From: a virus
Taxonomy: Duplodnaviria > Heunggongvirae > Uroviricota > Caudoviricetes
Length of the DNA: 26,128 nt
Reading direction: 5' to 3' (one strand)
IMG/VR virus record: IMGVR_UViG_2713897073_000006
A model generated the notes under the pieces. The model was given only the letters and a program-made list of their open reading frames with translations. It made no database searches and was not told where the DNA came from. A program made the translations under genes and the position numbers. Shown here piece by piece: positions 5,160 to 26,128 of this stretch; the first letter of the stretch is position 1, and the number at the start of each line of letters is the position of its first letter.

Positions 5160-5744
5160 TTATTGTTTGCTTTTTTCGTTCTGGTTGATGACAAATTCAA
5201 TGTAACTTTCGATCTTTGCCTTCTCTGTTTCAGGTAACAATGCGTAGCGCGAGCGGTCATAGTTGATAGTCGCGGGGTCGTGCGGGTGAATCAGTAATTC
5301 ATATCCGTGACGCCCAAATGCGGATGCAACATTCTCCAGGGTGGAAATGGAAACGCTGACCTCATTGTTTAACAGGCGGCTGATTGTTACCTGGGCGACG
5401 CCGGATGCGCGGTGAAGTTTTCCCTGCGTTGAAAGGTCGCGGCTTTCGCTCATCCAGCGTTCCAGGTTGTGAGCCGCCAGTTGACCAATGTCGCTTGGTC
5501 CGACAGGCTGAAAACCTTCCTGAGAAAGCGAGCGATCGATATCAAGCCAGTTACGGGGTTTATTGGCGGCAGCTTCAATTTTTCGCGCAACCTGGTCGCC
5601 GATAACCTTCTTGCCAAGAGCCCAGCGGTTTACCAGATTTGCCTGAGTTCCAAGTTTTTCAGCCATCCGCGTCTGAACACCATTGAATTCACGGTCGATC
5701 AAGTCGTTGAGATTTTGCCTGCGGACGTCCTGGATACTTTTCAT
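5160..5744 (-). CDS. Prophage repressor, two HTH-like segments and no S24 peptidase domain
   Basis: 194-aa ORF divergent from the Cro-like gene. HTH-like segments QTRMAEKLGTQANLVNRWALGKK and ASGVAQVTISRLLNNEVSVSISTLENVASAFG. No Ala-Gly / Ser-Lys autocleavage module is visible. Confidence 0.75.
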   Translation of the reverse strand: MKSIQDVRRQNLNDLIDREFNGVQTRMAEKLGTQANLVNRWALGKKVIGDQVARKIEAAANKPRNWLDIDRSLSQEGFQPVGPSDIGQLAAHNLERWMSESRDLSTQGKLHRASGVAQVTISRLLNNEVSVSISTLENVASAFGRHGYELLIHPHDPATINYDRSRYALLPETEKAKIESYIEFVINQNEKSKQ

Positions 5745-6129: not shown

Positions 6130-6150
6130 TATCCAGCCACAACCCTCTGT

Positions 6151-6174: not shown

Positions 6175-6185
6175 ATATCTATTCG

Positions 6186-6200
6186 TACCTCAAGGGTAAT
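6186..6200. promoter_or_regulatory. Operator-like site GTACCtcaagGGTAA (site e, one mismatch)
   Basis: Imperfect copy of the TTACC-N5-GGTAA motif between the tR1-like terminator and the cII-position gene. Confidence 0.4.
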
Positions 6201-6279
6201 AAAAAACCAAATATGGTTGATCTTTTTTTTGTGTCAGCACAAAATAACCGTAATCCCAATACTAATAACAGGGCTTACC

Positions 6280-12593: not shown

Positions 12594-14305
12594 CGAAGAA
12601 CGGACCATTTGAAGATATCAATATTGACGAGTCAGTGACGGTTTATGCCAGCGCCAGCACCGGGACAATTACGTTAACGGCAAGCGCCTCTATTTTTGGC
12701 GCGGAGCAGGTAGGCAAATTGTTCTATCTGGAACAGCCTGCAGTGGATTCAGTGCCGGTATGGGAAACCAGTAAGAGTACGTCGATTGGCGATATTCGCC
12801 GTGCAGACAGTAACTACTATCGCGCCGTTACAGCAGGCAAAACAGGTACTTTGCGCCCTTCGCATACAGAAGGCACATCATGGGATGGCTGGGGCGGATC
12901 CGGTGATGATGATACTGGCATTGAGTGGGAATATCTGCACAGTGGTTTTGGCATTGCCCGTATCACTGCTGCAAATGGAACTACTGCAACTGCCGAGGTG
13001 ATTTCCTATATCCCTTCGCAGGTAGTTGGCGAGGATAATGCCAGCTATAAATGGGCTAAATATGCCTGGAACAGTGTTAATGGTTATCCTGGCACTGTTG
13101 TTTATTATCAACAACGTCTTTACTTCGCCGCATCGACTGCGTTCCCTCAGACTATCTGGGCTAGCCGTACCGGGGATTATAAGGATTTTGGCAAAAGCAA
13201 TCCTACGCAGGATGACGACAGAATTATCTACACCTATGCCGGGCGTCAGGTTAATGAGATCCGCCACCTGATTGATGTCGGTTCGCTGGTGGCACTGACT
13301 TCCGGAGGTGAGTACGTCATCACCGGCGACCAGAACAAAGTGTTAACCCCATCATCATTTGCATTCAGCTCTCAGGGATCAAATGGCTCGAGCAATGTCC
13401 CACCAATTGCCGTGGCGAATATTGCTCTGTTCGTCCAGGAGAAAGGCAGTGTTGTCCGTGATCTGGCCTACTCATTCGATGTTGACGGCTATCAGGGGAA
13501 CGACCTGACCATCCTTGCCAATCATCTTTTTCAGAAGCACAGCATTGTTGACTGGTGCTTCTCTATTGTCCCTTACTCCAGCGCCTTCTGCATTCGTGAT
13601 GACGGTAAATTACTGGTGATGACCTATTTGCGTGATCAGCAGGTTTTTGCATGGGCACCACAATCCAGTACCGGAAAATATGAAAGCACATGCAGTATCA
13701 GCGAAGGAAATGAAGATGCGGTGTATTTCGTTGTTAACCGAACCGTTAACGGGCAAACAGTGAGATACATCGAGCGACTGTCCAGCCGTTTATTTACCAG
13801 CGATGAAGATGCTTTCTTTGTTGATTCTGGCCTTAGCTATGATGGAAGAAATACGTCTGACAGAACGATGACCATCACTGGTGGTTCTGGCGAATGGGAT
13901 TACCGCGCGGAATATACAATCAGTATTTCTGGTGGTGCGTACTTCACCAGTAGTGATGTCGGTGCGCAACTACAGTTCCCTTATACCGGCGCTGATTTAT
14001 CTACCGGTAACGCGCTGGATATATTTGGTGACACTGCTCAGTTTGGCGCTCTTGATTCGCTGACGACGGTGAATAACGCGCAACGCGAGGCTTACGGTTA
14101 TCAGGTTCAGGCTGCCAACTATAAAGCAGAAGCCAGTTCAGCCCGTAAACAGGGGAATGTGGGAGCAGCAACAACATTGCTCACTGCGCCTCTGAAGGCA
14201 TACGGTGCGTACCAGATGTTTGGTGGGACGTGGAGTCCGTTTACTCAAAGCACCCCTGCGCCAATCGGGGCAGCAGCAGGAACCAGATTACCCGGAGGAT
14301 TATAA
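12548..14305 (+). CDS. Virion structural protein (tail tube/hub-type candidate), start unresolved
   Basis: 585-aa Ser/Thr/Gly-rich ORF. The frame has no ATG near its 5' end (track start is TTG 12548 without a ribosome-binding site). Stop TAA overlaps the next ATG (TAATG). Confidence 0.6.
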   Translation: MRRYAHDNWQLVDVVTKNGPFEDINIDESVTVYASASTGTITLTASASIFGAEQVGKLFYLEQPAVDSVPVWETSKSTSIGDIRRADSNYYRAVTAGKTGTLRPSHTEGTSWDGWGGSGDDDTGIEWEYLHSGFGIARITAANGTTATAEVISYIPSQVVGEDNASYKWAKYAWNSVNGYPGTVVYYQQRLYFAASTAFPQTIWASRTGDYKDFGKSNPTQDDDRIIYTYAGRQVNEIRHLIDVGSLVALTSGGEYVITGDQNKVLTPSSFAFSSQGSNGSSNVPPIAVANIALFVQEKGSVVRDLAYSFDVDGYQGNDLTILANHLFQKHSIVDWCFSIVPYSSAFCIRDDGKLLVMTYLRDQQVFAWAPQSSTGKYESTCSISEGNEDAVYFVVNRTVNGQTVRYIERLSSRLFTSDEDAFFVDSGLSYDGRNTSDRTMTITGGSGEWDYRAEYTISISGGAYFTSSDVGAQLQFPYTGADLSTGNALDIFGDTAQFGALDSLTTVNNAQREAYGYQVQAANYKAEASSARKQGNVGAATTLLTAPLKAYGAYQMFGGTWSPFTQSTPAPIGAAAGTRLPGGL

Positions 14306-16818
14306 TGCCAGTCGTACCAACAGTATCCGGACGTCAGGTTGAGAGTCGTGGAGTTCAGTCAGCAGGCTTGCAGACGTTTTCTCAGCAAGGTATTGGTGAT
14401 GCTTTTGTTCGGGCAGGGACAGAGGCAATTGATGTTTTGGGGCAGGCAAAACAGCGTGCCAATATCGCTCTGGCTCAGGAGGCATCTCTTAACCTCAGTC
14501 AGATAAGAAGCGATCTGCTGAATAATCCTGAAACAGGATTGCTTAACCTGAAAGGGAAAAATGCTATTGGAAAAGGCCATGAGTATACGCAGCAGTTTGA
14601 TGCTCAGGTCGAACAACTGGCTATGTCGCTGCCGGATGAACAGGCTCGTAATGCTTTCATGCAGCAGGCGCAGCAGCAGCGCATTCAGTTCACTACGCAG
14701 GCCGGGCGACACGAGATAGGGCAAATTAATGCCTACGAAGAAGGCCAGTTTCAGGCGACACTGCTGAACAATGGTAAAAATGCCGCAGCATTGTATGGCG
14801 ACAACGCCGCATACGTATTGGCTAACAAGCAAACTTTCCAGCAAATTGAGGAGTACGGTGTTGCACATGGCTGGAGCAACGAGCAAATCCAGGCCAAGAA
14901 AATCGAGTTTAAAGAGAAGGTTGCTGATGCTGCATTGTCCCAGTGGTCGGCAAACAATGCGACCGCATTCATCCAAAGTAATGGCGAGTTAAGTGATACT
15001 GCTGCTGGAGCTCGCCGTGCTGTAGCAGATAGTGACTCTTCCGAGCGTGCCCGTGGCATACGCAACAATAACCCAGGAAATCTCGAATACAGCAAAACTA
15101 ATCCGTGGGTAGGCCAGACCGGTGATGATGGTCGATTTGCTAAATTCGAAACACCTGAACACGGGATTCGTGCATTAGGGCGGAACCTGATGTCGTATCA
15201 GAGGCAGGGTATTGATACCGTCAGCGAGATAATTAATCGCTGGGCACCGCCTGCTGATAAAAATGACACTATGTCGTATATCAAAGCAGTGTGCGAACAA
15301 CTTGGCGTTTCTGCTGATGAGCCTCTCGATGCATCTAATCCTGATACCCTGAAGGCGCTTTGTGCAGCCATTATCCATCATGAGAACGGTAGCCAGCCAT
15401 ACAGTGATCAGCAGTTAACTGCTGGTGTCAGTGCAGCACTTGGTTTATCAACAATTCCAACCAACACCAAACGCTATACCGGTAATGCAGCATTCGATGC
15501 GGCATCTCCTGAGGCGCAGGCAAGTTTTATGCGACAGGCGGATCAACTGCGTCGGCAGCAGCAGGCTGAATATAAAACGATGATTGACAGCCAGGTTCGC
15601 GATGCGACAGCTGCGTATATGCGTGGCGTTGAATTTCCTAACCCACCTGGTGAGGCTGATTTTATTGCAGCTTATGGCGTCAGAGAAGGAAACCTGCGAT
15701 ATACCGAGTTCAGAAATACGCAGATCGCCGGACAGTATATAGGCTCTTTCCGCAATATGCCGACAAGCAGCATTACAGCATATGTTGAGCAATTACGCCC
15801 GGATACTGGTGAGACAGGGGAGGGGTATGCGGCACGCGCAGCTCTTTATGACAACGTTGTTTCGGCTGCAAATCAGGTGATAAAGCAGCGGCAGTCGGAT
15901 CCTGTGCAGTTCTCTCTTTCCTCCGGACAGGCAAAGCCTATCGACATGAGCAATAAGGATAACTTTGGACAGAGCGTTGCCTTGCGTGCTGCTCAGGTCA
16001 GTGACCTTGCTAAGTCATATGGCACTCCACTGACGTTCTTTTCCAAAGACGAGGCCAATCAAATCGGTGTTTTCTTTCGTGATGCGCCCGTTTCCCAACA
16101 GGCTGCATATCTCGATACCATCAGGCAAAGCACTGGTGGTGGGCAGGTGTATATGTCAGCACTACAGCAGATCAGTGCCAACGCTCCATCTGCTGCCGTT
16201 GCCGGGATACTGATGGATAAGCCTGGTGGTATTTTGGCAGAAAAAAACTGGTTTAATCCGGATGTTTCCGTGTCTCCTGAAACCGCTGCGCAGACAATTC
16301 TTGCTGGCGCTGCGGCTCGTAAAGGTACTGATGATGCGAAAGGTATTCCGATGCCTAAAGATGCTGATCTTCGCCTTGAGTTTTCTGACATGGTGAAGGA
16401 TGCATTTGCTGGTGACGCTCATGGGGCATCAATGGCATACGAGATCGCAAAGGATTATTACGCTGGTGTGATGGCGAAAAAAGGCGTGGTATCAGGAGAA
16501 ATTGACAATGATGTCTGGAAACAGGCTGTTAACGTAGCTACAGGTGGCGTGCATGACTATAACGGAATGGGGAATGTCCTTTTGCCGTGGGGAATGTCTG
16601 CAGAGCAATTCGATAAGCAGGTTAATCAGGCTTGGAATGAACAAGTTGTCGGCTCCGGGATAAAAACACCGCCTGGTCAGTATGGTTTGCAAAGTTACGG
16701 CGATAGTCAGTACCTGGTGAAACTTGGCGCTGGTTATCTGCTGAAAGATGATGGTTCTCCCGTTGTTCTTAATCTGACACAGAAGCGTCAGAGATTCTCC
16801 GGAGATATTCCGCAATGA
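14305..16818 (+). CDS. Internal virion / ejection protein (about 837 aa)
   Basis: ATG at 14305 with GGAGG 7 nt upstream (the track's earlier start at 14230 lacks this). Gln/Ala-rich large protein with a central segment RGIRNNNPGNLEYSKTNPWVGQTGDDGRFAKFETPEHGIRALGRNL. Position matches podovirus core proteins. Confidence 0.7.
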   Translation: MPVVPTVSGRQVESRGVQSAGLQTFSQQGIGDAFVRAGTEAIDVLGQAKQRANIALAQEASLNLSQIRSDLLNNPETGLLNLKGKNAIGKGHEYTQQFDAQVEQLAMSLPDEQARNAFMQQAQQQRIQFTTQAGRHEIGQINAYEEGQFQATLLNNGKNAAALYGDNAAYVLANKQTFQQIEEYGVAHGWSNEQIQAKKIEFKEKVADAALSQWSANNATAFIQSNGELSDTAAGARRAVADSDSSERARGIRNNNPGNLEYSKTNPWVGQTGDDGRFAKFETPEHGIRALGRNLMSYQRQGIDTVSEIINRWAPPADKNDTMSYIKAVCEQLGVSADEPLDASNPDTLKALCAAIIHHENGSQPYSDQQLTAGVSAALGLSTIPTNTKRYTGNAAFDAASPEAQASFMRQADQLRRQQQAEYKTMIDSQVRDATAAYMRGVEFPNPPGEADFIAAYGVREGNLRYTEFRNTQIAGQYIGSFRNMPTSSITAYVEQLRPDTGETGEGYAARAALYDNVVSAANQVIKQRQSDPVQFSLSSGQAKPIDMSNKDNFGQSVALRAAQVSDLAKSYGTPLTFFSKDEANQIGVFFRDAPVSQQAAYLDTIRQSTGGGQVYMSALQQISANAPSAAVAGILMDKPGGILAEKNWFNPDVSVSPETAAQTILAGAAARKGTDDAKGIPMPKDADLRLEFSDMVKDAFAGDAHGASMAYEIAKDYYAGVMAKKGVVSGEIDNDVWKQAVNVATGGVHDYNGMGNVLLPWGMSAEQFDKQVNQAWNEQVVGSGIKTPPGQYGLQSYGDSQYLVKLGAGYLLKDDGSPVVLNLTQKRQRFSGDIPQ

Positions 16819-18617
16819 GTTACTTTGGCCTTAATCCAGTAAACCAGAATCAGCAGCTTGACGAAGCAGCATCAAATCCAGCTGGCTTTAACAGCAATGT
16901 TGGTTTTTTCGACAATGCTGTAGGAGCGGCATTGTCTGGTTTGTACTCCGGGCTGGTGGCAAAGCCAGATCAGTTGCTATGGGCAGGGATGGATAAAATC
17001 GTATCCCCGATTGCTCAGTTTGTTAACGAAAACACCTCGCTCAATGACACTTCAGTTTCATACATTGCTGAGCAGAGAAAACTAGCAGAGCAGCAGGTTA
17101 AGCGGCTGACGCCTGATGCGGCGACAACCGGAACCGCCGGGCAGGTCCTTTATGGGTTGTTCGATATGGGCGGGCAGGCTGTTGTCGGTACAACGCTCGG
17201 TGGTCCGGTCGGAGGTGCTGCGGCGGTAACTTCGCTACAGGGTTTTTCTGAGTTTGAACGGCTGACAGCACAGGGTGTTGATTTCAGGACGGCGCAGGAA
17301 GCGGGATTAGTGCAGGGTATTACTGCTGGTGCCGGAACACTGATCCCTATGAGCCTCGGGTTACGTGCTGGTGGTGCGCTGGCGGAAGGTGTGGCGGCTC
17401 AGCTTGCGCGGACTGGTGAAAGTTCAGTGCGACGCGCCGCAGCAACAGCAGTACGTGCAACGCCAGATATTGCCTATGCCGCAGGTACAAATATTGCGTT
17501 CGGTATGGCACAGCGTGGGCTTACTGCAAAAACGCTTCGTGATGGTGGCTATAGCGAAATGGCTAACCAGTATGATGTGTTGGATCGACAGGCAATTGCT
17601 ATTGATGCTGTTCTTGGGGTGGCGTTTGGTGGTGTCGGCAGATTTATTAACTCTCGCGGCGAGTCTACAAGCGCACCAAATTTTTCACCAGTTGATGTTG
17701 ATGCTGCACTGGCGGCGAATGCCGCTCATCATGCTGAAATTGATATTGCGCCCGGCGTGCCGATCAACGTGCTTTCGCGCAATTCTCACATTCAGGCTCT
17801 GCGAAAAGCTATGTCTGATGTTAGCCAGGGGAGACCTGTAGACGTTGCCAGCATTGTTGAGTCTGCATCTTTCAGTGAAATTCCTGGGCGCAAGAGTCTG
17901 CTGTCTCAGGCAGTTAATGAGGCTCTGTCATCTGTAGATGATGGAGTAACGGCGCGCGCTATAGAAAATCGGTTGCTTGAAGAACAGGCCGCGCAGCTTT
18001 TGCCGCGTGGCGATAGACAGGTTTACCAGTCTGAAATCGCTAATAGCCAACGAATTATTGAAAATCTCACTGAACAGCGCGCACAAATTCTTGCAGAAGA
18101 GCCAACCGGTAGCGGTAAATCTTTGTCTCGTGCTCGATCAGATAAACAGGTCAGACTTCGCGATATTGACCAACGAATCCGGCAGGCACAAGAACGCCTG
18201 GAATTTTCCCGTAACGCGTTGGCGCCGCACGAGCCTGGAGGTCAGTTTTTTGAAGCTCGAGCAGAACTGGCACGGCGACAGCAGGCAGAAAGTGAACTTA
18301 ATGCTCAGGCTGTTTCATTCTATAAAACAGCAGAGGTCAGGACGCCAGACGAAGTAGCTCCTTTTGAGCCCGGTAAGATATTGCAACAGACAGAACAAAA
18401 AATGATGGCAGATCCGGCAGGAGATATTGATCTGCGTATAGCTGAAGACTCGCTGCTTGAATCTCCGGACATGATAATCACCGTGCTGGATGATGATGGT
18501 AATCCACAATCGCGCAGTGCGCGTGAAGTACTGGATGAAGCGAACAGGGAAAGTGAGCAGGCAATACAGGATTCCAGCCTGTTTGATGTTGCTGTGGCGT
18601 GTTTCTTGAGAGGTTAA
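16815..18617 (+). CDS. Internal virion / ejection protein (600 aa)
   Basis: ATGA-coupled to the upstream gene. Gly/Ala-rich N-terminal half and a charged, coiled-coil-like C-terminal half, typical of podovirus injection proteins. Confidence 0.7.
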   Translation: MSYFGLNPVNQNQQLDEAASNPAGFNSNVGFFDNAVGAALSGLYSGLVAKPDQLLWAGMDKIVSPIAQFVNENTSLNDTSVSYIAEQRKLAEQQVKRLTPDAATTGTAGQVLYGLFDMGGQAVVGTTLGGPVGGAAAVTSLQGFSEFERLTAQGVDFRTAQEAGLVQGITAGAGTLIPMSLGLRAGGALAEGVAAQLARTGESSVRRAAATAVRATPDIAYAAGTNIAFGMAQRGLTAKTLRDGGYSEMANQYDVLDRQAIAIDAVLGVAFGGVGRFINSRGESTSAPNFSPVDVDAALAANAAHHAEIDIAPGVPINVLSRNSHIQALRKAMSDVSQGRPVDVASIVESASFSEIPGRKSLLSQAVNEALSSVDDGVTARAIENRLLEEQAAQLLPRGDRQVYQSEIANSQRIIENLTEQRAQILAEEPTGSGKSLSRARSDKQVRLRDIDQRIRQAQERLEFSRNALAPHEPGGQFFEARAELARRQQAESELNAQAVSFYKTAEVRTPDEVAPFEPGKILQQTEQKMMADPAGDIDLRIAEDSLLESPDMIITVLDDDGNPQSRSAREVLDEANRESEQAIQDSSLFDVAVACFLRG

Positions 18618-18622
18618 ATTAA

Positions 18623-21097
18623 ATGAGACAGGAATGTATACAAGCGGTCCAGCAGGCGGCGCAGCGCACGTTAACGGCGCGAGAAATACAGAACATTGAA
18701 GACCGCATTTATCGAAATATGCGCTCCATTGCTCGTGATGACCCGATGTCGTGGCGACAACTTTCCGAATCAGAACGGTTGTATCGTGCAGCACAATTGG
18801 CATCTGAAGAATTACAGCGAGAAGCGGCATTAAAGAAACGTCGTGTGGCCCTCACTATAGCCGCACGTCAGAGATTGGATAAATTTATCAATAACTATCA
18901 AGGGGCTGATGGGAAACTTGGCGCTCTTAACCGTACTATTGCTTTTAATGCAGACGGTAAATCGAATTTCCTCTCTGTTGAATCCAGAACAAAAGCCACT
19001 CGTGATTATGCATTGAGTCAATTGCAGGAGGCATTTGAAGCAGTTGATCCTCGCTTTTTTGGCCTGTTTGAAGATGAAGCGGGCGTGCGTGACCTGGTAT
19101 ATGAAATGCGAGGGCAAAATACTGGCAATGCTAAAGCAAGAAAAGGTGCTAAGGCGTGGAGAGAAGTGACAGATCTACTTCGCCGCCGGTTTAATGATGC
19201 TGGTGGGGACATTGGCTATCTCGAAAACTGGGGGATCCCTCAACATCATTCTATGGAAAAGGTTGGGGCGGTATCAAAAGATAAATGGGTTAGCGATGTT
19301 ATAGGTAAGCTGGATCGCAAATATTATACCCGAGCCGATGGACAACTGATGAACGATGCCGAGTTGTCTGCATTTCTTGGAGAGGCTTATAACACGATCG
19401 CTACTGGTGGGCTGAATAAGCTTACTGACACCGGAATGCGAATTTCCGGAGCACGTGCTAACCGTGGTAATGCATCACGACAGATACATTTCAAAGATGC
19501 AGATTCCTATCTGCAATATCAGCAACTTTATGGCGATCGCTCTCTATGGGAAATCATGGTCGGTCACCTGGAAGGTATCAGTAAAGATATTGCACTGGTG
19601 GAAACATATGGCCCAAACCCCGATCATGTTTTCCGCTCTCTTCTTGATCAGGTGAAGGCAGAAACGGCAACAGCTAACCCGAGTAAAACCGGTAGCGTCG
19701 AGCGTCTGGCGAACAAAACAGAGAACTTGTACAACTTTATTTCCGGAAAAACACAGCCTGTAGCGAATCCCCACATCGCGCGATGGTCTGACAATATCCG
19801 CAACTGGCTGGTTGCCAGCAGACTCGGATCCGCGTTGCTGTCATCGTTCTCTGATCTTGGAACCATGTATCTGTCTGCGAAGGTTACCAACCTTCCAATG
19901 AACCAGTTATTTCGCAACCAGCTTGAAGCTATTGACCCAACGAACCGTACTGAGCTTGCGCGGGCGCGCCGCGCTGGCCTGGCGATGGAATCTCTACTTG
20001 GCAGCGTTAACCGCTGGGCGATGGATAATATGGGGCCGTCTGTGTCTCGTTGGGCGGCAACGGCGGTAATGCGTGCCAGTGGGCTTACAGCATGGTCAGA
20101 TGCGCACAAGCGCGCCTATGGCGTAACCATGATGGGAAGCCTGGGAGAAGTAGTGTCACGGACACCAGACCTTCGTAGCCTCGATGACTCTGATTTTCGT
20201 ATCCTGAAAAGTAAAGGGATTACTGACACAGACTGGAGCGTATGGAAGCTGGCGCAACAGGAGGACTGGGGGAACGGTAATAATACGATGCTGACACCGG
20301 AAAGCATTATGCGTATCCCTGATTCAGCAGTTAAACATCTTGGTGAGCCTGAACGCGTGAAATTTGAGGCAATGCGTAAACTGCTCGGTGCCGTAACTGA
20401 AGAAGTTGATATGGCTGTTATTACACCGGGCGCACGTGAGCAGATGTTCGTAGGGTCTGGTCTTCAGCGTGGAACATGGAAAGGTGAATTAACGAGAAGT
20501 GTTTTCCTGTTTAAATCGTTCCCTATCTCGGTTGTTATGCGTCACTGGTCACGCGCTATGGGTATGCCGTCTGCTGGTGGGCGTGCAGCATATATAGCAA
20601 CGTTTTTAGCAAGCACAACCATGCTTGGTGCTCTTTCCATGCAGATTACTGATCTTATTAATGGGAGAAATCCAAAGGAAATGACCGGTGACCACATGGT
20701 TAAATTCTGGATAAATGCATTTTTAAAAGGTGGCGGGGCTGGGTTGTACGGTGATTTTCTTTTCTCTGACCACACTAGGTACGGGAGCGGCGCGCTGGCG
20801 TCGATGCTTGGCCCGGTAGCTGGTCTGGTTGATGATGTAGTGAAGATTGCTCAGGGCATACCGTTAAATGCTGTGGAAGGGAAGAGTGAGCAGACTGGTG
20901 GTGATCTGGTGAAGCTGGGGAAAGGTTTGATGCCTGGTGCGAATCTCTGGTACTTGAAGGCGGCTCTCGATCACATGATCTTTAACCAGATGCAGGAGTA
21001 TTTTTCACCAGGTTATTTGCGTAAAATGGAGCAACGTTCGAAGAAAGAGTTTAACCAGACATACTGGTGGCGACCACAGGATGTCACTCCGCAATAA
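18623..21097 (+). CDS. Large internal virion / ejection protein (824 aa)
   Basis: GAGAGG ribosome-binding site. Last large gene of the structural operon; size and position match a T7 gp16-type core protein. No catalytic motif identified with confidence. Confidence 0.7.
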   Translation: MRQECIQAVQQAAQRTLTAREIQNIEDRIYRNMRSIARDDPMSWRQLSESERLYRAAQLASEELQREAALKKRRVALTIAARQRLDKFINNYQGADGKLGALNRTIAFNADGKSNFLSVESRTKATRDYALSQLQEAFEAVDPRFFGLFEDEAGVRDLVYEMRGQNTGNAKARKGAKAWREVTDLLRRRFNDAGGDIGYLENWGIPQHHSMEKVGAVSKDKWVSDVIGKLDRKYYTRADGQLMNDAELSAFLGEAYNTIATGGLNKLTDTGMRISGARANRGNASRQIHFKDADSYLQYQQLYGDRSLWEIMVGHLEGISKDIALVETYGPNPDHVFRSLLDQVKAETATANPSKTGSVERLANKTENLYNFISGKTQPVANPHIARWSDNIRNWLVASRLGSALLSSFSDLGTMYLSAKVTNLPMNQLFRNQLEAIDPTNRTELARARRAGLAMESLLGSVNRWAMDNMGPSVSRWAATAVMRASGLTAWSDAHKRAYGVTMMGSLGEVVSRTPDLRSLDDSDFRILKSKGITDTDWSVWKLAQQEDWGNGNNTMLTPESIMRIPDSAVKHLGEPERVKFEAMRKLLGAVTEEVDMAVITPGAREQMFVGSGLQRGTWKGELTRSVFLFKSFPISVVMRHWSRAMGMPSAGGRAAYIATFLASTTMLGALSMQITDLINGRNPKEMTGDHMVKFWINAFLKGGGAGLYGDFLFSDHTRYGSGALASMLGPVAGLVDDVVKIAQGIPLNAVEGKSEQTGGDLVKLGKGLMPGANLWYLKAALDHMIFNQMQEYFSPGYLRKMEQRSKKEFNQTYWWRPQDVTPQ

Positions 21098-21106
21098 GGA
21101 AGTGTT

Positions 21107-21280
21107 GTGTTTTTAATTATTTTGAGTGTGATAATTTCTGGTGGATTGTTATTTATTGACCGCTACAAATATTTTCTTAACCCTCAGACTCAAGCTATTT
21201 GCTGGTTCATCTTTGTTGTGCAGGGAGTAGTTCTTGTTGCAAGCCTTATTGAGGGGAGGCCTCTTATTTTTACTGGGTAA
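21107..21280 (+). CDS. Small hydrophobic membrane protein (57 aa, GTG start)
   Basis: GTG at 21107 with AAGGAAG 5 nt upstream, right after the stop of the large virion gene. Hand-translated VFLIILSVIISGGLLFIDRYKYFLNPQTQAICWFIFVVQGVVLVASLIEGRPLIFTG suggests two transmembrane segments. Not in the ORF track. Confidence 0.4.
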   Translation: MFLIILSVIISGGLLFIDRYKYFLNPQTQAICWFIFVVQGVVLVASLIEGRPLIFTG

Positions 21281-21293
21281 ATTAGGTGACTAC

Positions 21294-21590
21294 ATGCAAG
21301 CTATAGGATTCATTGTTTATATCGTCGTTGGTCTTTTTCAGTTGGCAGCAATTATGGCTGGGCTTGAATCATGGTGGGGATTGCACTGGATAATTGCAGC
21401 CCCCATTGCTTTCATCGTGAGCTATATTCCATTTGTTGGAGCGATTGTTGGTATGGTTGGCGCTGTGGATGTATGGCGGTGGGAGTGGTGGCAGGCTGGC
21501 CTTCTCTTCTTTGGTGGGATCATCTTTGCTATTGTCTGCGGTGGAATGTCATCATTTTTCGAATGGCTAGCATTCAGAAAAGGAACGTGA
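21294..21590 (+). CDS. Membrane protein with three predicted transmembrane helices (98 aa)
   Basis: ATG at 21294 with GGTGA ribosome-binding site; the track's TTG start at 21234 was rejected. Product MQAIGFIVYIVVGLFQLAAIMAGL...EWLAFRKGT has three hydrophobic spans and a short basic C-terminus. Followed by a terminator. Confidence 0.6.
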   Translation: MQAIGFIVYIVVGLFQLAAIMAGLESWWGLHWIIAAPIAFIVSYIPFVGAIVGMVGAVDVWRWEWWQAGLLFFGGIIFAIVCGGMSSFFEWLAFRKGT

Positions 21591-21599
21591 CATGTCACA

Positions 21600-21623
21600 G
21601 GCCGCTTTCGCGGCCTTGTTTTT
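21600..21623 (+). terminator. Rho-independent terminator after the membrane-protein gene
   Basis: Stem GGCCGC / GCGGCC (21600-21605 / 21610-21615), loop TTTC, followed by TTGTTTTT. Confidence 0.7.
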
Positions 21624-21783
21624 AACGAATGCCACCGCCTCCCGGGCGGGAATCCGCAGAACGCCCACCGCAGCGGGAGCCGTCAGCGGCAGTATCGCTG
21701 TCGTGCTGACAACGACCGGCAAAGGCCTGAGTTGAAGCTACCAGAGACAACAAAACGAACAGTGCAGCAAATGCTTTTTTCAT
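21622..21783 (-). CDS. Small secreted peptide with signal sequence (53 aa)
   Basis: ATG at 21783. Product MKKAFAALFVLLSLVASTQAFA|GRCQHDSDTAADGSRCGGRSADSRPGGGGIR has a Sec-type signal with AxA site and two Cys in the mature part. It has its own promoter-like element upstream. Confidence 0.35.
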   Translation of the reverse strand: MKKAFAALFVLLSLVASTQAFAGRCQHDSDTAADGSRCGGRSADSRPGGGGIR

Positions 21784-21796
21784 TGTGAAATTTCCA

Positions 21797-21824
21797 TCTA
21801 TAAGCCACCTCAATGTGGCGTCAA
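21797..21824 (-). promoter_or_regulatory. Putative sigma70 promoter for the small secreted-peptide gene
   Basis: On the minus strand, TTGACG (complement of 21819-21824), 16-nt spacer, TATAGA (complement of 21797-21802). The spacer contains the inverted repeat GCCAC-N6-GTGGC. Confidence 0.4.
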
Positions 21825-21855
21825 TGAGTGTAGCACTGACTTTTGTTTCGTCCAC

Positions 21856-21875
21856 AAAAAATCCCGCAGCGCGGG
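21856..21875 (-). terminator. Rho-independent terminator after the 147-aa accessory gene
   Basis: Stem CCCGC / GCGGG (21863-21867 / 21871-21875), loop AGC. On the minus strand it is followed by a six-T run (complement of AAAAAA at 21856-21861), right after the stop at 21877. Confidence 0.6.
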
Positions 21876-21876
21876 C

Positions 21877-22320
21877 TTATTCTTCTTCTTCATCATTAAA
21901 AAGCGGATTGTTGTTTCCATCTGATGAAAGGAAAGGTATGTGTTCTCTTGAAAATCCAACAATGACAATTTCATTATCATTTTTTGCATAATGAATGCAT
22001 TCATTAGAATGCATTCCGCCAGGGTTGAAATTTAAGTTAATGGTATAATTCTTAAATGTGTTTGGATACCATGTTGGCCCACAATGATAATGCCAATAAT
22101 TCTCTTGCTCATAATTGTCTGAGCCTGGAATTTTATCATGGTTATCATCAACCCACGAGGGCTTGTTTTTTCCAACAAGCGCCCTTCCATTGGCAACATC
22201 CTCTAAAAACCTTTGTATGATTTTTATTTCATCATCAGTAAGGAAAGGTCCGTCTACAGCGAAAGGGGTGTTGCTTTCCCCATGTAGAAAACTATTAGAT
22301 ATTCTAATGTTAAACTTCAA
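21877..22320 (-). CDS. Hypothetical accessory protein, AT-rich gene (147 aa, TTG start)
   Basis: TTG at 22320 preceded by AGGAG at 7-nt spacing. Coding sequence is visibly A+T-rich compared with the flanking virion genes. Product has an acidic NDEEEE tail and His/Cys/Trp-rich segments (ENYWHYHCGPTWYPN, GGMHSNECIHYAKND). No family recognised. Confidence 0.55.
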   Translation of the reverse strand: MKFNIRISNSFLHGESNTPFAVDGPFLTDDEIKIIQRFLEDVANGRALVGKNKPSWVDDNHDKIPGSDNYEQENYWHYHCGPTWYPNTFKNYTINLNFNPGGMHSNECIHYAKNDNEIVIVGFSREHIPFLSSDGNNNPLFNDEEEE

Positions 22321-22340
22321 GGAAAACTCCTGATGTGCTT

Positions 22341-22508
22341 CTATTTGGAGCGAAATGCCGCCTTGAAGTCGCTAAAAGATGTTCCTGTCTGGTAAACCAT
22401 ATCCTTGTCGCGCTCTTTGCTTGCGCGACCAAGCATAACTTTTCCAATGACATCCCAGCATTGCTTGGCTTGTTCATTGTGCTGAGTACGATTTTTCAAC
22501 GCTGTCAT
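22341..22508 (-). CDS. Hypothetical small protein (55 aa), upstream partner of the 147-aa gene
   Basis: ATG at 22508 with a strong AAGGAGG ribosome-binding site 8 nt upstream, directly downstream of operator site h. Hand-translated MTALKNRTQHNEQAKQCWDVIGKVMLGRASKERDKDMVYQTGTSFSDFKAAFRSK. Preferred over the plus-strand ORF 22335..22535. Confidence 0.45.
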   Translation of the reverse strand: MTALKNRTQHNEQAKQCWDVIGKVMLGRASKERDKDMVYQTGTSFSDFKAAFRSK

Positions 22509-22520
22509 ATCGCGCCTCCT

Positions 22521-22535
22521 TTACCTTTAAGGTAA
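22521..22535. promoter_or_regulatory. Palindromic operator-like site TTACCtttaaGGTAA (site h)
   Basis: Perfect motif just upstream of the ribosome-binding site of the 55-aa gene and just downstream of a TAATAT-like -10. Identical in sequence to site j. Confidence 0.6.
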
Positions 22536-22570
22536 TATTACGCGAATCTACATCACATCGCCAATGATTA

Positions 22571-22593
22571 TTTTAAAGGCACATCCCTGTGCC
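22571..22593 (-). terminator. Terminator-like hairpin after the Bro-N gene
   Basis: Stem GGCACA / TGTGCC (22578-22583 / 22588-22593), loop TCCC. On the minus strand it is followed by a T/A-rich run, 9 nt after the stop at 22602. Confidence 0.4.
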
Positions 22594-22601
22594 GCCGCCC
22601 G

Positions 22602-23330
22602 TCAGAAGAACCCTGCCTTGTCGTTGATGTACTCCGCGTGGGTCTGGATATCACGCAGGCATTTGCTCACACCGACGATGTAGCAGAACATGGTGGTCAG
22701 TTCCGCCGCCGCGCCCGATACGTCATGCCCGTCTTCCTGTAACTGGTTCAGCAAATTCATCAGCAGTGAGTTCTCCGTCAGGCCGAGAACACCAGACGGC
22801 GAATGAATCAGGCTACGGTAGCCGGGCTTCAGTGGGGCGCTGTAGGTTTTGTTCTCTATCTTCATTGCCTGCATCACTGCTGATGCTGTGGCGTTGGCTA
22901 CCTGGTCGGCAACCATCTTTATGCGTTCTTCTTGCGGGAGCGAGTTTTTAATGTAACTTCCGGTGCGGCGGATCTGAGGAAGAACCTCACCTGTAACCCA
23001 TTTACGAAAGCGGTATGGGATAGTGCCTGGTGTCACCGCATCGCGGCAGCGGAGGATCAGTGTGTAGAGGCCTGACTCGTTGATAATATTGGTTTCGCCT
23101 TGACGGCCTAAGTTAAATTTAGCCCTTTCATCATCATCAAGAGATTTTATTGACATAGTGGGGTTTGTCAGTTGAAGAGCTTTAATAACGTCTTTGGCAA
23201 CAAACCAAGGATTAATCGCAAATCCAACTCTCCTCAGAGTTATAACGCTCAAACGCTTTACACATACTTTGTGTTGGTGCTGGAGGGCGTTCAAGGGCAG
23301 CCATGACTTGCTCCCAAACATCCTCTTCAA
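22602..23330 (-). CDS. Bro-N domain antirepressor-like protein (N-terminus uncertain)
   Basis: Contains the Bro-N signature ...FAINPWFVAKDVIKAL...INESGLYTLILRCRDAV...FRKWVTGEVLPQIRRTGSY. The C-terminal roughly 90 aa are paralogous to the small protein at 24440..24697. The 5' 119 nt overlap the upstream RHH gene in another frame; an alternative ATG lies at 23156. Confidence 0.65.
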   Translation of the reverse strand: MKRMFGSKSWLPLNALQHQHKVCVKRLSVITLRRVGFAINPWFVAKDVIKALQLTNPTMSIKSLDDDERAKFNLGRQGETNIINESGLYTLILRCRDAVTPGTIPYRFRKWVTGEVLPQIRRTGSYIKNSLPQEERIKMVADQVANATASAVMQAMKIENKTYSAPLKPGYRSLIHSPSGVLGLTENSLLMNLLNQLQEDGHDVSGAAAELTTMFCYIVGVSKCLRDIQTHAEYINDKAGFF

Positions 23331-23496
23331 CGATCAAGCGGCGATGTTCATTAATAACTGTTTCAGCTCTAAAAGTCGCAGACTCCATTACAAATTGAGA
23401 TACGGACACTTTAGAAATAACAGCAGCTTCTTCGATACGGCGCTTCGCAGCTTCGGGCAGACGAAACTCGAACCGCTCCTTTCTTACTGCGTTCAT
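23212..23496 (-). CDS. DUF1778 / TacA-like ribbon-helix-helix protein (antitoxin-type fold)
   Basis: ATG at 23496 with AGGAG 5 nt upstream. The 94-aa product MNAVRKERFEFRLPEAAKRRIEEAAVISKVSVSQFVMESATFRAETVINEHRRLIVEEDVWEQVMAALERPPAPT matches the DUF1778 antitoxin pattern. No GNAT toxin gene follows. Confidence 0.75.
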   Translation of the reverse strand: MNAVRKERFEFRLPEAAKRRIEEAAVISKVSVSQFVMESATFRAETVINEHRRLIVEEDVWEQVMAALERPPAPTQSMCKAFERYNSEESWICD

Positions 23497-23560
23497 AACA
23501 ACTCCTGAGCTAATGCTCACAGTGGTTTATACCACATAACGATATGCACGGTACGGGAAT

Positions 23561-23575
23561 TTACCGTACAGGTAA
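23561..23575. promoter_or_regulatory. Palindromic operator-like site TTACCgtacaGGTAA (site i)
   Basis: Perfect motif 65 nt upstream of the RHH gene start, in the promoter region of the RHH / Bro-N operon. Confidence 0.6.
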
Positions 23576-23653
23576 TGATAAGCGCGAAGAAACATTAAAA
23601 TCAACCTTATTTGGTTGATTGCGTTTAACGCTTGATCACCTGAAAGCAAGATA

Positions 23654-23668
23654 TTACCTTTAAGGTAA
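23654..23668. promoter_or_regulatory. Palindromic operator-like site TTACCtttaaGGTAA (site j)
   Basis: Perfect motif 21 nt upstream of the ATG of the zinc-ribbon membrane-protein gene. Identical to site h. Confidence 0.6.
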
Positions 23669-23688
23669 TGTTATTGTGAGGAAAAGCA

Positions 23689-24417
23689 ATGGAAGTTTTC
23701 TGGATAGTTGTTGGTGTGGTTGCGGTGATTATTTACGTTATCAACCAGAACAAGACTAAGATCTCTGATCGTACGGTCGTTAATCATAACAAAACGATAA
23801 AGACCGAAGATGGGGAGATAACGATTAATCGTACACAGGTGATAGAACACACCTCTACTCAGTTTCAAAAAACTGGAGGTAATGCGCCTAATATTTCCGC
23901 ACCTCCTGCTTATGATAGTGCGGTAATCCAGACATATTATAAACAGCAGGAGTTAGCAAAAGAGAGGCAACTGATTCAGCCAAAGCCGTTTACAACTGAG
24001 ATTCCACCTGGAGTGTCAACGCGTCCGGCATATCATGGAAGATTCCCTGGTGATGACATATCGTCTCAGTCATCTAAAAAAGCACCTCAGGCAATATCAG
24101 AGCCAGCAAGAATACCTTCTGTATCGCCGCAAAAAGAAGAATCAGCTAACAGAGTTTCAAGTGGTAGCAAGCAGTGCTTGCGATGCAGAATAAACCTTCC
24201 ATATGAAAAATTCAGGAAATCGTCAAAAAATCCAGATGGATTGACTAAATGGTGTGCAAGGTGTCTCGATGGCCCAAAGAATACACGCCATATGAAGTGG
24301 TGCCCAATTTGTAATGTCCGCAGAAAACGAACCAGCTTTTACCCTAATAATCAAAATGCGGACGGCTTAATGGCATGGTGCAAAACGTGCTGGGATGAGC
24401 ACAAAGCGAAACGATAG
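23689..24417 (+). CDS. Membrane-anchored protein with C-terminal tandem C4 zinc ribbons (function unknown)
   Basis: GAGG ribosome-binding site. N-terminal hydrophobic helix MEVFWIVVGVVAVIIYVI, long polar Ser/Pro/Gln-rich linker, then two repeats of C-x2-C ... (N)xDGL-x2-WC-x2-C (CLRC...PDGLTKWCARC and CPIC...ADGLMAWCKTC). Confidence 0.7.
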   Translation: MEVFWIVVGVVAVIIYVINQNKTKISDRTVVNHNKTIKTEDGEITINRTQVIEHTSTQFQKTGGNAPNISAPPAYDSAVIQTYYKQQELAKERQLIQPKPFTTEIPPGVSTRPAYHGRFPGDDISSQSSKKAPQAISEPARIPSVSPQKEESANRVSSGSKQCLRCRINLPYEKFRKSSKNPDGLTKWCARCLDGPKNTRHMKWCPICNVRRKRTSFYPNNQNADGLMAWCKTCWDEHKAKR

Positions 24418-24441
24418 GCCGCTCTTGCGGCCTTTAAATTT
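24417..24441. terminator. Bidirectional terminator-like hairpin between convergent genes
   Basis: Stem GGCCGC / GCGGCC (24417-24422 / 24427-24432), loop TCTT, followed by TTTAAATTT on the plus strand. Sits between the stop of the zinc-ribbon gene (24417) and the stop of the minus-strand gene (24440). Confidence 0.55.
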
Positions 24442-24697
24442 ACCGGGTTTGTTTTCGTAATTGTTCGGCACAATAGTCGAGATGTGTTTGCAGATCCCGC
24501 ATAGACATCTGTGAGCTGGTGACGTAGTTAATCAGTGCAGTCAGTTCGGCAAGTGGGCCATCGACATTAAATCCATCCTTATCGAGATCCCGGAGTAATT
24601 TCATCAAGTGCGATCCCTCCACCAGTGACCTGACGCCTCCCGGCGTGTGAATCCTTTCGGTAAATCCGTCTTCCAGTGGATAGTGATACCGCTGCAT
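24440..24697 (-). CDS. Small protein paralogous to the Bro-N protein C-terminal domain; candidate SOS-inducible antirepressor
   Basis: ATG at 24697 with GGAG ribosome-binding site (the track's TTG start at 24715 was rejected). The 85-aa product (...SHLMKLLRDLDKDGFNVDGPLAELTALINYVTSSQMSMRDLQTHLDYCAEQL) aligns by eye with the C-terminus of the 22602..23330 protein (...SLLMNLLNQLQEDGHDVSGAAAELTTMFCYIVGVSKCLRDIQTHAEYINDK). A LexA box lies about 22 nt upstream. Confidence 0.6.
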   Translation of the reverse strand: MQRYHYPLEDGFTERIHTPGGVRSLVEGSHLMKLLRDLDKDGFNVDGPLAELTALINYVTSSQMSMRDLQTHLDYCAEQLRKQTR

Positions 24698-24716
24698 CTT
24701 ATCTTCTCCATGCAAT

Positions 24717-24736
24717 AACTGTATATTTATACAGTA
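24717..24736. promoter_or_regulatory. LexA (SOS) box aaCTGTatatttatACAGta
   Basis: CTGT-N8-ACAG with an AT-rich spacer, near-identical to the E. coli LexA consensus taCTGTatatatatACAGta. Located in the promoter region of the minus-strand gene 24440..24697. Confidence 0.65.
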
Positions 24737-24773
24737 TCAAATAATTTGTTTGCTATCCAGCACGTTTTGCAAA

Positions 24774-24788
24774 TTACCCGAAAGGTAA
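24774..24788. promoter_or_regulatory. Palindromic operator-like site TTACCcgaaaGGTAA (site k)
   Basis: Perfect motif between the LexA-box gene and the tailspike gene, about 40 bp from the LexA box. Confidence 0.6.
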
Positions 24789-24892
24789 TATCTATTCATA
24801 TTCACAGCCTTTCTATCCATATGTGGTTTTTCAGGTAATAGAATAACCAGATATGCGGCGCAACGGGTGCTGCGACTATCTGGAGATTTAAC

Positions 24893-26128
24893 ATGACGGT
24901 CTCAACCGAAGTTGACCACAACGAATACACCGGTAACGGCGTTACGACATCATTTCCGTATACCTTCCGTATTTTCAAAAAAACCGACCTGGTTGTTCAG
25001 GTGTCTGATCTGAACGGGAACGTAACAGAATTGGTTCTGGATACCGGTTATAAGGTAACTGGAGCGGGCACTTATAGTGGCGGTGAAGTGGTTCTCCCGT
25101 CGCCGCTTGCTGCTGGCTGGCGAATTACGATAGAGCGTGTGCTTGATGTGGTGCAGGAGACTGATCTTCGCAATCAGGAAAAATTTTTCCCCGAAGTTCA
25201 TGAAGATGCATTTGACTACCTGACGATGCTGATCCAGCGATGTTTTGGGTGGTTCAGACGTGCATTGATGAAACCCTCGTTGCTTGCAAAATATTACGAT
25301 GCAAAGCAAAACAGAATATCTAACCTTGCTGATCCATCACTTGAGCAGGACGCTGTAAATAATCGCTCAATGCGTAATTATGTCGATGCTGCAATCGCCG
25401 GGGTTGTTGGTGGTTTTGGTTGGTTTATTCAGTATGGTTCTGGAGCAGTATACCGAACGTTCCAGGATAAGATGCGGGATGAAGTAAATATTCGTGATTT
25501 TGGAGCAGGAGATTCAGGTGAAGTTACAGATGCTATTTTGAAGGCTGTTGCAGCTACTAATGGCACCATTATTATCCCGGATGGAAATTATGTTTCTACT
25601 CCAACAGTAACGCAGACTCCGAACGTTATGAAATTGCTTTCACGAGCAGAGTTTAGAGGTTCTTTGACCATCAATCTTCCTGTTGGAACTGTTAACCTAT
25701 CAGAAAAGACGCTAATCAGATCACAAAATGTTCATAAACTTTCTATTTCTGGTATTACGTATTCAACTACGCTAACTGGCTTAGTGGGTGTATCTGGTAT
25801 CCCCAAATCATACCTAGTTACGCTCTCTCTGGCTGATGCTTCAAACGTTTCTGTAGGCGACGTCGTGATGATTCGTCACGATATAACGGGGACAGGAGGA
25901 TATCACATCCATTGTGGCGGATGGGTTGTGACTGCCGTGTCTGGCAAAAATGTTACCGTAAAAAACACCTGCCACCTGTCTGAATTACCAACGTCAACGA
26001 TTACAGGCGGAACAGTAGTCATACTAAAAAGTATTCTGAGATATGCCGGATGTGATGGGATTGTGGCTGCAGGTGCTGGGTGCATTAAGACAATAAACGG
26101 TGTCGCAATTGTTGTCAACGACGGATGA
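24893..26128 (+). CDS. Tail fibre / tailspike protein
   Basis: 411-aa ORF with GGAG ribosome-binding site. N-terminal MTVSTEVDHNEYTGNGVTTSFPYTFRIF...TDLRNQEKFFPEVHEDAFDYLTMLIQ resembles the conserved particle-binding N-terminal domain of enterobacterial phage tail fibres or spikes (from memory). C-terminal part is a Thr/Ser/Gly/Val-rich beta-type region. The stop coincides with the window end. Confidence 0.75.
   Translation: MTVSTEVDHNEYTGNGVTTSFPYTFRIFKKTDLVVQVSDLNGNVTELVLDTGYKVTGAGTYSGGEVVLPSPLAAGWRITIERVLDVVQETDLRNQEKFFPEVHEDAFDYLTMLIQRCFGWFRRALMKPSLLAKYYDAKQNRISNLADPSLEQDAVNNRSMRNYVDAAIAGVVGGFGWFIQYGSGAVYRTFQDKMRDEVNIRDFGAGDSGEVTDAILKAVAATNGTIIIPDGNYVSTPTVTQTPNVMKLLSRAEFRGSLTINLPVGTVNLSEKTLIRSQNVHKLSISGITYSTTLTGLVGVSGIPKSYLVTLSLADASNVSVGDVVMIRHDITGTGGYHIHCGGWVVTAVSGKNVTVKNTCHLSELPTSTITGGTVVILKSILRYAGCDGIVAAGAGCIKTINGVAIVVNDG

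Follow-up and report, generated by a model that had tools for sequence, protein, structure and literature searches.

A membrane-tethered double zinc-ribbon protein from an accessory cassette of temperate phages: a possible superinfection exclusion or abortive infection factor

Introduction

What might a temperate phage gain from a small protein that is anchored in the membrane by one helix and carries a pair of zinc ribbons at its other end? The question is raised by a gene for a 242-residue protein at positions 23689 to 24417 of a 26,128-nucleotide stretch of tailed phage DNA (Caudoviricetes; IMG/VR record IMGVR_UViG_2713897073_000006), which we refer to in full as the window. A preliminary description, made from the DNA sequence alone, had noted the unusual domain layout and had offered superinfection exclusion, defence or lysogeny control as possible roles.

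We regard it as quite possible, though short of probable, that the protein is a membrane-tethered, cytoplasm-facing nucleic acid binder that serves in superinfection exclusion or abortive infection. What the analysis shows is the architecture of the protein with its predicted topology, the homology of its zinc ribbons, the lack of nuclease residues, purifying selection on both ends of the chain, the distribution of the gene as an optional cassette, and its regular placement in rex-like and sieA-like slots. Nucleic acid binding, an exclusion or abortive phenotype, and the timing of expression are what we infer beyond this.

Architecture and conservation of the protein

An AlphaFold2 model of the protein, built on 24 homologues, agreed with the preliminary description in all main parts (Table 1). 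It contains a single N-terminal transmembrane (TM) helix (residues 3-23), predicted with a local distance difference test score (pLDDT) of about 90, and a long polar linker (residues 53-159), which is disordered and rich in Pro, Ser and Gln. In the C-terminal domain (residues 160-242, pLDDT above 90), two beta-beta-beta-beta-alpha units carry exactly the tandem pattern described before, C-x2-C...DGL-x2-WC-x2-C, namely C163-x2-C166...D183-G-L-x2-W-C189-x2-C192 and C205-x2-C208...D225-G-L-x2-W-C231-x2-C234. The two ribbons align with each other without gaps, at 35% identity (E 2e-7).

Conservation was assessed in two alignments, one of the 24 close homologues and one of 39 broader family members. 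All eight cysteines, both tryptophans, K161 and D225 were invariant in both. D183 showed no variation among the close homologues and was retained in 90% or more of the broader set. The linker varied in length from about 45 to 145 residues across the family. A comparison with the allele of phage TL-2011b gave a ratio of nonsynonymous to synonymous substitution rates (dN/dS) of 0.38. All 9 replacements fell in the linker (residues 103-160) and none in the TM region or the ribbons, suggesting that both ends of the protein are constrained, while the tether is free to vary. The TL-2011b copy is intact, though it was deposited only as a misc_feature. The same coding sequence was called by PGAP/RefSeq as a "hypothetical protein" in Escherichia coli O6:H16 strain M9682-C1, to which the window around the gene is 100% identical.

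Topology prediction, which had been proposed as a check, indicated an N-out / C-in orientation. Residues upstream of the TM helix included no Lys or Arg in 38 of the 39 family members, and a conserved N-Q-N-K/R-T-K cluster follows the helix. According to the positive-inside rule, the ribbons are therefore predicted to lie in the cytoplasm, which is also a suitable compartment for Cys4 zinc sites. We weighed a periplasmic Cys-rich domain as well and ruled it out, on account of the Lys/Arg-free flank before the helix, the Lys/Arg cluster after it, and the Cys4 zinc type of the domain. The C-terminal domain was strongly basic in all 39 members (net charge +7 to +19, isoelectric point (pI) 9.1-10.3), with values of +14 and 9.9 for the protein in the window.

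A subfamily from Haemophilus, Aggregatibacter and others differs in the middle part of the chain, where a heptad-like, probably coiled-coil stretch replaces the Pro-rich linker (positions 5665-6306 of locus L021, and L020; proteins P0059, P0060 and P0124). This coiled-coil-like linker suggests that these relatives may oligomerise.

Relatives of the zinc ribbons

The whole protein falls into phrog_6762, a PHROGs family of "unknown function", and the database name of every family member is "hypothetical". The protein matched no Pfam, NCBIfam or PADLOC model above threshold, and searches of PDB sequences with the C-terminal domain and with the family profile returned non-significant matches only. 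The ribbons by themselves were more informative. The Pfam score for Stc1 (PF12898) was 21.1 bits (E 4.9e-4), under the gathering cut-off of 24.8 bits, and the protein is thus at best a marginal member of that family as judged by its sequence. The multi-ribbon relatives P0036, P0047 and P0098 exceeded the cut-off, with 33.9, 25.4 and 39.2 bits, respectively. The top Foldseek match in the PDB was the tandem zinc finger of Stc1 (2LUY, probability 0.89). In PHROGs, the ribbons matched zinc-ribbon segments of endonuclease VII (EndoVII), HNH, primase and Lar-like families, and their viral structural neighbours were giant-virus and phage proteins, mostly named zinc finger, HNH or EndoVII, or unnamed. 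We take the ribbons to be Stc1-like tandem zinc fingers that also group with the ribbon arrays attached to HNH/EndoVII nucleases of phages and giant viruses.

An exhaustive HMMER search with the 88-residue C-terminal domain identified 913 cluster representatives with E below 1e-3. About 60 of the best 150 matches resembled the query in having a TM helix and two ribbons in about 200 residues; the remainder were soluble arrays of 3-12 ribbons. Fusion partners of the ribbons included an HNH nuclease (P0047), HEAT repeats (P0098), and a Bro-N domain together with a Vsr/PvuRts1I-like nuclease (P0139). In P0126, a 1237-residue superfamily 1 helicase resembling MkoC of the Mokosh system (PADLOC E 3e-66), the C-terminus is a double ribbon 42% identical to that of the window protein, and it includes the subtype-specific second ribbon. 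This fusion links the ribbon domain to a known class of defence proteins.

We also checked the domain for the active site of HNH/EndoVII nucleases, which combines a catalytic His with a metal-binding Asn or His. No His or Asn was conserved across the family in either alignment, and no HNH or Endonuclease_7 Pfam match was found. In the P0047 fusion the ribbons are separate from the HNH domain. Lacking the conserved His/Asn of an HNH active site, the domain is read as a non-catalytic binding module. Its basic charge and its fusion partners point to nucleic acid as the putative ligand, although Stc1, the one solved relative, binds a protein.

An optional cassette of temperate phages

The gene lies in a slot of a phiV10/epsilon15-like prophage (Uetakevirus) that is bounded by the tailspike gene (24893..) on one side and, on the other, by the second of two ejection-protein genes (16815..18617 and 18623..21097), which is also the last. 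The content of this slot varies among Uetakeviruses. PAS61 has only an epsilon15p19-like gene there, phiV10 adds a Bro-N gene, and the prophage in the window and TL-2011b add the zinc-ribbon cassette. The zinc-ribbon gene is missing from phiV10, PAS61 and most Uetakeviruses. It was present in 128 of 5426 complete E. coli genomes (about 2%), enterotoxigenic (ETEC) and Shiga toxin-producing (STEC) lineages included. In E. coli, the conserved block has sharp edges and extends from 23558 to about 24435, with differing antirepressor genes to its left. As this block spans the region from operator to terminator, the gene appears to travel with its own control region. In most of the E. coli genomes, the left homology breakpoint at 23558 coincides with the operator at 23560-23576, and operator palindromes may therefore act as recombination joints for module exchange.

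Outside E. coli, and as far afield as marine Gammaproteobacteria, full-length homologues were found in Enterobacter, Citrobacter, Salmonella, Serratia, Providencia, Pectobacterium, Buttiauxella, Yersinia, Edwardsiella, Aeromonas, Acinetobacter, Haemophilus, Pseudoalteromonas, Oceanobacter, Marinobacterium and Neptunomonas, with shorter or cut-off relatives in Aggregatibacter and Neisseria. Identity of the full-length homologues goes down to about 25% across the Gammaproteobacteria, with the cysteines invariant. The carriers are podovirus-like, lambdoid and myovirus-like prophages.

About 20 distinct neighbourhoods were examined. In five lineages, the gene lies downstream of, and on the same strand as, a CI-type repressor with helix-turn-helix and S24 domains. 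The gap is 15-54 bp in four of them (Neptunomonas L010/L026, Acinetobacter HY1485 L023, Marinobacterium L025, and Aeromonas phage phiARM81mr L031), and in the fifth, an Acinetobacter metagenome-assembled genome (L019), one small gene intervenes. This close same-strand placement behind cI, the arrangement of lambda cI-rexAB, implies co-transcription with the repressor in lysogens. In Oceanobacter and Pseudoalteromonas the gene is tail-to-tail with the CI gene, and in two further contexts it is within about 3 kb of one. In six lineages (E. coli, Enterobacter, Pectobacterium, Edwardsiella, Acinetobacter and Haemophilus) it stands beside antirepressors of the Bro-N, KilA-N, Rha or AntA/B types. 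In Serratia, Providencia and Yersinia, it lies between ejection-protein and tailspike genes with no regulator in view, and in one context it is part of a myovirus-like accessory region.

The ejection-protein/tailspike placement of the window recurs in prophages of Enterobacter (L014), Acinetobacter (L018), and Serratia, Providencia and Yersinia (L002, L005 and L030). In the epsilon15-like Acinetobacter locus L018, the order is ejection proteins, zinc-ribbon gene, Arc-type ribbon-helix-helix (RHH) gene, divergent KilA-N antirepressor gene and tailspike gene, which mirrors the P22 order of gene 16, sieA-orf59a-mnt, arc-ant and gene 9. With respect to the late genes, the zinc-ribbon gene points one way in some phages and the other way in others, which is what an autonomous cassette should show.

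In Pectobacterium (L013, 7446-7892), the homologue stands right behind a HicB/HicA toxin-antitoxin pair and a Bro-N gene that share its strand, which again suggests that accessory and defence-type genes accumulate in this slot. We also considered whether the protein is an Mnt-like repressor of the divergent antirepressor promoter. This appears unlikely, as many homologues have no adjacent antirepressor. In L018, moreover, the Arc/Mnt-type RHH protein is encoded by a separate gene, on the same strand and upstream of the zinc-ribbon gene.

Control of the gene

The palindrome ATTACC-N5-GGTAAT was found at 11 sites in the window, versus 0.66 expected (positions 5025, 5087, 5799, 5848, 6184, 8130, 8192, 22520, 23560, 23653 and 24773). 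On either side of the repressor gene (5160..5744), sites are found at PL- and PR-like promoters. Pairs spaced 62 bp apart (5025/5087 and 8130/8192) bracket two strong promoters, while the sites at 22520, 23560, 23653 and 24773 are single, the two between the antirepressor and zinc-ribbon genes (23560/23653) being 93 bp apart. The site nearest to the promoter always overlaps a -10 hexamer, suggesting that the sites are operators of the immunity repressor, dispersed round the genome. This dispersal is P1-like.

The preliminary description had credited the gene with its own promoter region, an operator and a terminator. The operator is there, as a perfect copy shortly before the start codon (Table 1); the promoter is less clear, since a search of the + strand upstream of the gene revealed no canonical sigma-70 promoter. 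The best candidate is weak, TTGATC-17-TACCTT or alternatively GATATT as the -10 element, and lies inside or beside the operator. A promoter belonging to the gene itself is thus presumed from sequence, and the operator covers the only plausible -10 element (GATATT / TACCTT). The context of this operator, AGATATTACCTTT, recurs at the operator of the epsilon15p19-like gene. With an operator over its likely -10 element, the gene may be repressed in this lysogen. Downstream, the terminator was borne out as a GC-rich hairpin followed by UUUAAAUUU, which is probably an intrinsic terminator. A search with Rfam found no RNA family in 21000-25200, and thus no sar-like antisense RNA among the described families.

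Table 1. Features of the zinc-ribbon gene, its cassette and the adjoining genes, in window coordinates
Feature	Position	Strand	Remarks
Coding sequence, 242-aa membrane-tethered double zinc-ribbon protein (PHROG 6762)	23689..24417	+	
N-terminal TM helix, residues 3-23	23695..23757	+	AlphaFold2 pLDDT about 90
Conserved juxtamembrane segment, residues 29-52, T..I.T.dGe..i.R	23773..23844	+	Beta-hairpin, low-confidence prediction
Linker, residues 53-159	23845..24165	+	Variable, disordered, Pro/Ser/Gln-rich
Zinc ribbon 1, residues 160-196; C163, C166, C189, C192	24166..24276	+	pLDDT above 90
Zinc ribbon 2, residues 202-238; C205, C208, C231, C234	24292..24402	+	pLDDT above 90
Operator TTTACCGTACAGGTAAT	23560..23576	.	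Overlaps -10 (TATCAT) of the leftward RHH/antirepressor promoter; left edge of cassette
Perfect operator palindrome ATTACCTTTAAGGTAAT	23653..23669	.	20 nt upstream of ATG
Shine-Dalgarno sequence GAGGA	23679..23683	+	5 nt before ATG; read from sequence
GC-rich hairpin over the stop codon, then UUUAAAUUU	24416..24433	+	7 bp, 6 of them GC, -14.4 kcal/mol; probable terminator; right edge of cassette
Bro-N antirepressor gene	22602..23252	-	
DUF1778/TacA-type RHH gene	23212..23496	-	Divergent; directly upstream of and overlapping the antirepressor gene
Epsilon15p19-like 85-aa gene	24440..24697	-	Convergent
LexA box AACTGTATATTTATACAGTA	24717-24736		20 nt upstream of the epsilon15p19-like gene; near-consensus, 2 mismatches
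Operator before the epsilon15p19-like gene	24773-24789		

Proposed role and alternatives

On the reading that we prefer, temperate phages would carry the gene as a self-contained accessory ("moron") cassette. The protein would enter the inner membrane via the one N-terminal helix, N-out / C-in, and the long flexible tether would hold the basic, non-catalytic tandem Cys4 domain at the cytoplasmic face. There, the ribbons would capture foreign nucleic acid as it enters or replicates, or else a protein that comes in with it. The outcome might be a block of productive DNA entry (superinfection exclusion), or clustering of TM helices might compromise the membrane (abortive infection). A role in conflicts between phages is suggested because the gene is optional, moves as a cassette, occupies both rex-like and sieA-like slots, and has been kept in a dead prophage. 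The exclusion, defence or lysogeny-control role suggested earlier thus fits the genomic context across many phages. In this phage, the operator argues that the gene may be repressed in the lysogen and not expressed from it.

Several points weigh against this proposal. With its likely promoter under the operator, the gene may stay off in the lysogen and require induction or infection to be turned on; such a pattern is atypical of an exclusion gene expressed from a prophage. The solved relative, Stc1, uses its tandem zinc fingers for contact with the Ago1 protein and not for DNA binding. PADLOC 2.0 gave no match to a defence model, and only TniQ at E 0.76. Proximity to cI or ant is equally expected of a lysogeny regulator. 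Finally, SieA-type exclusion is specific to one injection machinery (PMC10883804), and the family is found in podovirus-like, lambdoid and myovirus-like prophages.

Repression by the immunity repressor would be natural for an early lytic helper that tethers the phage's own DNA to the membrane and organises replication, transcription or packaging after the repressor is lost. A precedent is p16.7 of phage phi29, in which a linker joins an N-terminal anchor to a C-terminal DNA-binding domain, a plan that the TM helix, linker and basic DNA-binding-type domain described here would fit, although the p16.7 fold is unrelated and phi29 is a virulent Bacillus phage. The operator on the likely -10 element, as at the PL-like, ant and 8192 promoters, probably places the gene in the repressor-controlled set, and the coiled-coil-like linker of some relatives would also suit such a function. 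We nevertheless consider a helper of this kind unlikely, since the gene is dispensable (most close relatives of the phage do without it), sits in five lineages in the cI operon, which is the one expressed in lysogens, and is intact in a prophage that is unable to package DNA. We give a similarly low rating to a modulator of the lysis-lysogeny switch, in which the ribbons would be an Stc1-like protein adaptor that holds the repressor, the antirepressor or a host factor (e.g., a membrane protease) at the membrane and so tunes induction or establishment. In most contexts the gene adjoins cI or genes of the Bro-N, KilA-N, Rha or AntA/B types, in the window it lies inside an antirepressor cluster under SOS and repressor control, and among solved structures the Stc1 tandem zinc finger matches best. 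However, the Serratia, Providencia, Yersinia and myovirus-like contexts have no adjacent regulator, and the ribbon domain is very basic and repeatedly fused to enzymes of nucleic acid metabolism. Moreover, the neighbouring regulators come from unrelated families, which makes a conserved protein partner unlikely.

Two other explanations carry very little weight. That the protein is an active, membrane-bound HNH/beta-beta-alpha-Me nuclease and breaks down DNA there is highly improbable; this reading was rejected for want of conserved catalytic residues, and the missing Pfam matches and the separation of ribbons and HNH domain in P0047 point the same way. The location in a defective prophage, and the deposition of the TL-2011b copy as a mere misc_feature, might indicate a decaying or non-functional open reading frame (ORF). 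This is hardly credible, given that TL-2011b and 128 E. coli genomes carry an intact copy, that distant full-length homologues retain the invariant cysteines, and that dN/dS is 0.38 with no replacement in the TM region or the ribbons.

Comparison with known systems

The preliminary description had not recognised the architecture from any characterised phage protein. No member of the family is in fact characterised, but the ribbons turned out to be Stc1-like, and architectural analogues exist. The closest are AbiP and PdpSau, each of them the product of a single abortive infection gene, in which an N-terminal TM helix anchors a cytoplasmic domain that is positively charged and binds nucleic acid (PMC10127798). 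PdpSau is encoded by a Staphylococcus aureus prophage and AbiP comes from Lactococcus; the two are prophage- or plasmid-borne (PMC10127798). The mode of action that we suggest for the zinc-ribbon protein is the one proposed in the literature for these membrane-anchored Abi proteins. The family described here shares with them the single accessory gene on a mobile element, the N-terminal TM anchor and the C-terminal domain, which is predicted to be cytoplasmic and is basic in 39 of 39 members. It differs in having two Cys4 ribbons on a long disordered tether instead of an OB-fold-like domain (OB, oligonucleotide/oligosaccharide-binding), and in having gammaproteobacterial instead of Firmicutes hosts. 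The likeness is one of architecture; no sequence relationship was detected, and no search was aimed at one.

SieA of phage P22 is an inner-membrane protein, encoded at this same position and expressed from its own promoter, that blocks DNA delivery via the ejection proteins (PMC10883804). It crosses the membrane three times, bears the motif FxRYPxEAxxFNK on the cytoplasmic side, and affects P22-like ejection proteins only (PMC10883804). The common ground is the slot, from the last ejection-protein gene to the immI antirepressor/tailspike region, and the inner-membrane location; in P22, the slot holds sieA, orf59a, mnt, arc and ant. The protein in the window has a single TM helix, and the FxRYPxEAxxFNK motif is missing from its sequence. 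SieA is without zinc ribbons. The range of the zinc-ribbon family takes in lambdoid and myovirus-like prophages as well.

The lambda Rex system consists of two proteins, RexA and RexB, of which RexB has four TM segments. Like the rex genes, the zinc-ribbon gene is found directly downstream of cI on the same strand in five lineages, and its product, too, is membrane-associated. In the window, however, the repressor gene lies 18 kb from the zinc-ribbon gene, and there is no homology to Rex. Stc1 itself (PF12898; PDB 2LUY) is soluble and serves fission yeast as an adaptor between Ago1 and a histone-methyltransferase complex; the resemblance lies in the eight cysteines arranged in two CxxC...CxxC units. 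HNH/EndoVII ribbon arrays and the Cys4 scaffolds of PacI and Hpy99I share the unit C-x2-C...F...DG...C-x2-C, with significant profile and structure matches. The protein described here differs from them in lacking a nuclease domain, in having two ribbons only, of a distinct subtype (second ribbon CP.C...R.KTSFY), and in its membrane anchor.

Because defining features of SieA, Rex and AbiP/PdpSau are absent, we place the protein outside these systems and outside any PADLOC family. It may nonetheless work like an AbiP/PdpSau-type or SieA-type factor. Our literature search returned nothing relevant on a membrane-anchored zinc-ribbon exclusion protein or on Stc1-type domains in phages.

The prophage and the surrounding genes

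The window represents a prophage of ETEC O6:H16 that is about 97% identical to phiV10 and phiv142-3. Compared to phiv142-3, it has three clean deletions, at 8332/8333 (6.2 kb, including both terminase subunits and a tRNA-Arg gene), at 12533/12534 (1.9 kb) and at about 13984-13996 (1.3 kb). The first junction was found in 15 complete E. coli genomes, and in M9682-C1 the tailspike gene is split by the insertion sequence (IS) IS100. The prophage is defective and clonally inherited. The zinc-ribbon gene is intact in this terminase-less, IS-disrupted prophage.

The statement that the gene lies between two antirepressor-type genes was essentially correct. To the left, the RHH gene comes first and then the Bro-N antirepressor gene. 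The RHH protein is an orphan "antitoxin" without a GNAT toxin partner, and its gene holds the position of arc in P22 immI. To the right lies the epsilon15p19-like gene, whose 85-residue product is 44% identical to the C-terminal 72 residues of the Bro-N antirepressor. The LexA box before this gene is the only copy in the window, with 0 expected. As judged by its sequence context, the gene appears to encode a small antirepressor under SOS control that sets off induction. An NCBIfam scan (Pfam was not run) gave no match above threshold for the 194-residue main repressor (5160..5744) and thus identified no S24 self-cleavage domain in it.

Further to the left in the same island, the stretch 21107-22508 contains unannotated accessory ORFs for a multi-TM protein of 118 residues (21234..21590, + strand), an acidic-tailed protein of 147 residues (21877..22320, - strand) and a protein of 55 residues (22341..22508, - strand). 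The last of these is preceded by a promoter that is overlapped by the operator at 22520. None of these three ORFs had a Pfam, NCBIfam or PADLOC match.

Significance

The cI-adjacent and the immI/sieA-like slots of temperate phages have repeatedly been home to exclusion and defence functions, and this uncharacterised family may bring a new sensor domain to that familiar role. A bolder and more doubtful generalisation is that the family is an unrecognised, widespread single-gene defence or exclusion system of gammaproteobacterial prophages. In such a system, the ribbon sensor would capture invading nucleic acid at the inner membrane and either block infection or trigger membrane failure. It would fill both the rex and the sieA slots, and its sensor would have been recruited by Mokosh-type helicases.

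If the protein is a defence or exclusion factor, it would represent a compact single-gene mechanism with a new type of sensor, a tethered Stc1-like ribbon pair, and would hint at the job that the ribbon module does in the HNH nuclease and Mokosh-like helicase fusions. Its prevalence in about 2% of complete E. coli genomes means that an influence on susceptibility to the phages used for typing or therapy is conceivable. If it is instead a modulator of induction, it would be part of an unusual circuit of epsilon15-like phages that is controlled by the SOS response, antirepressors and dispersed operators.

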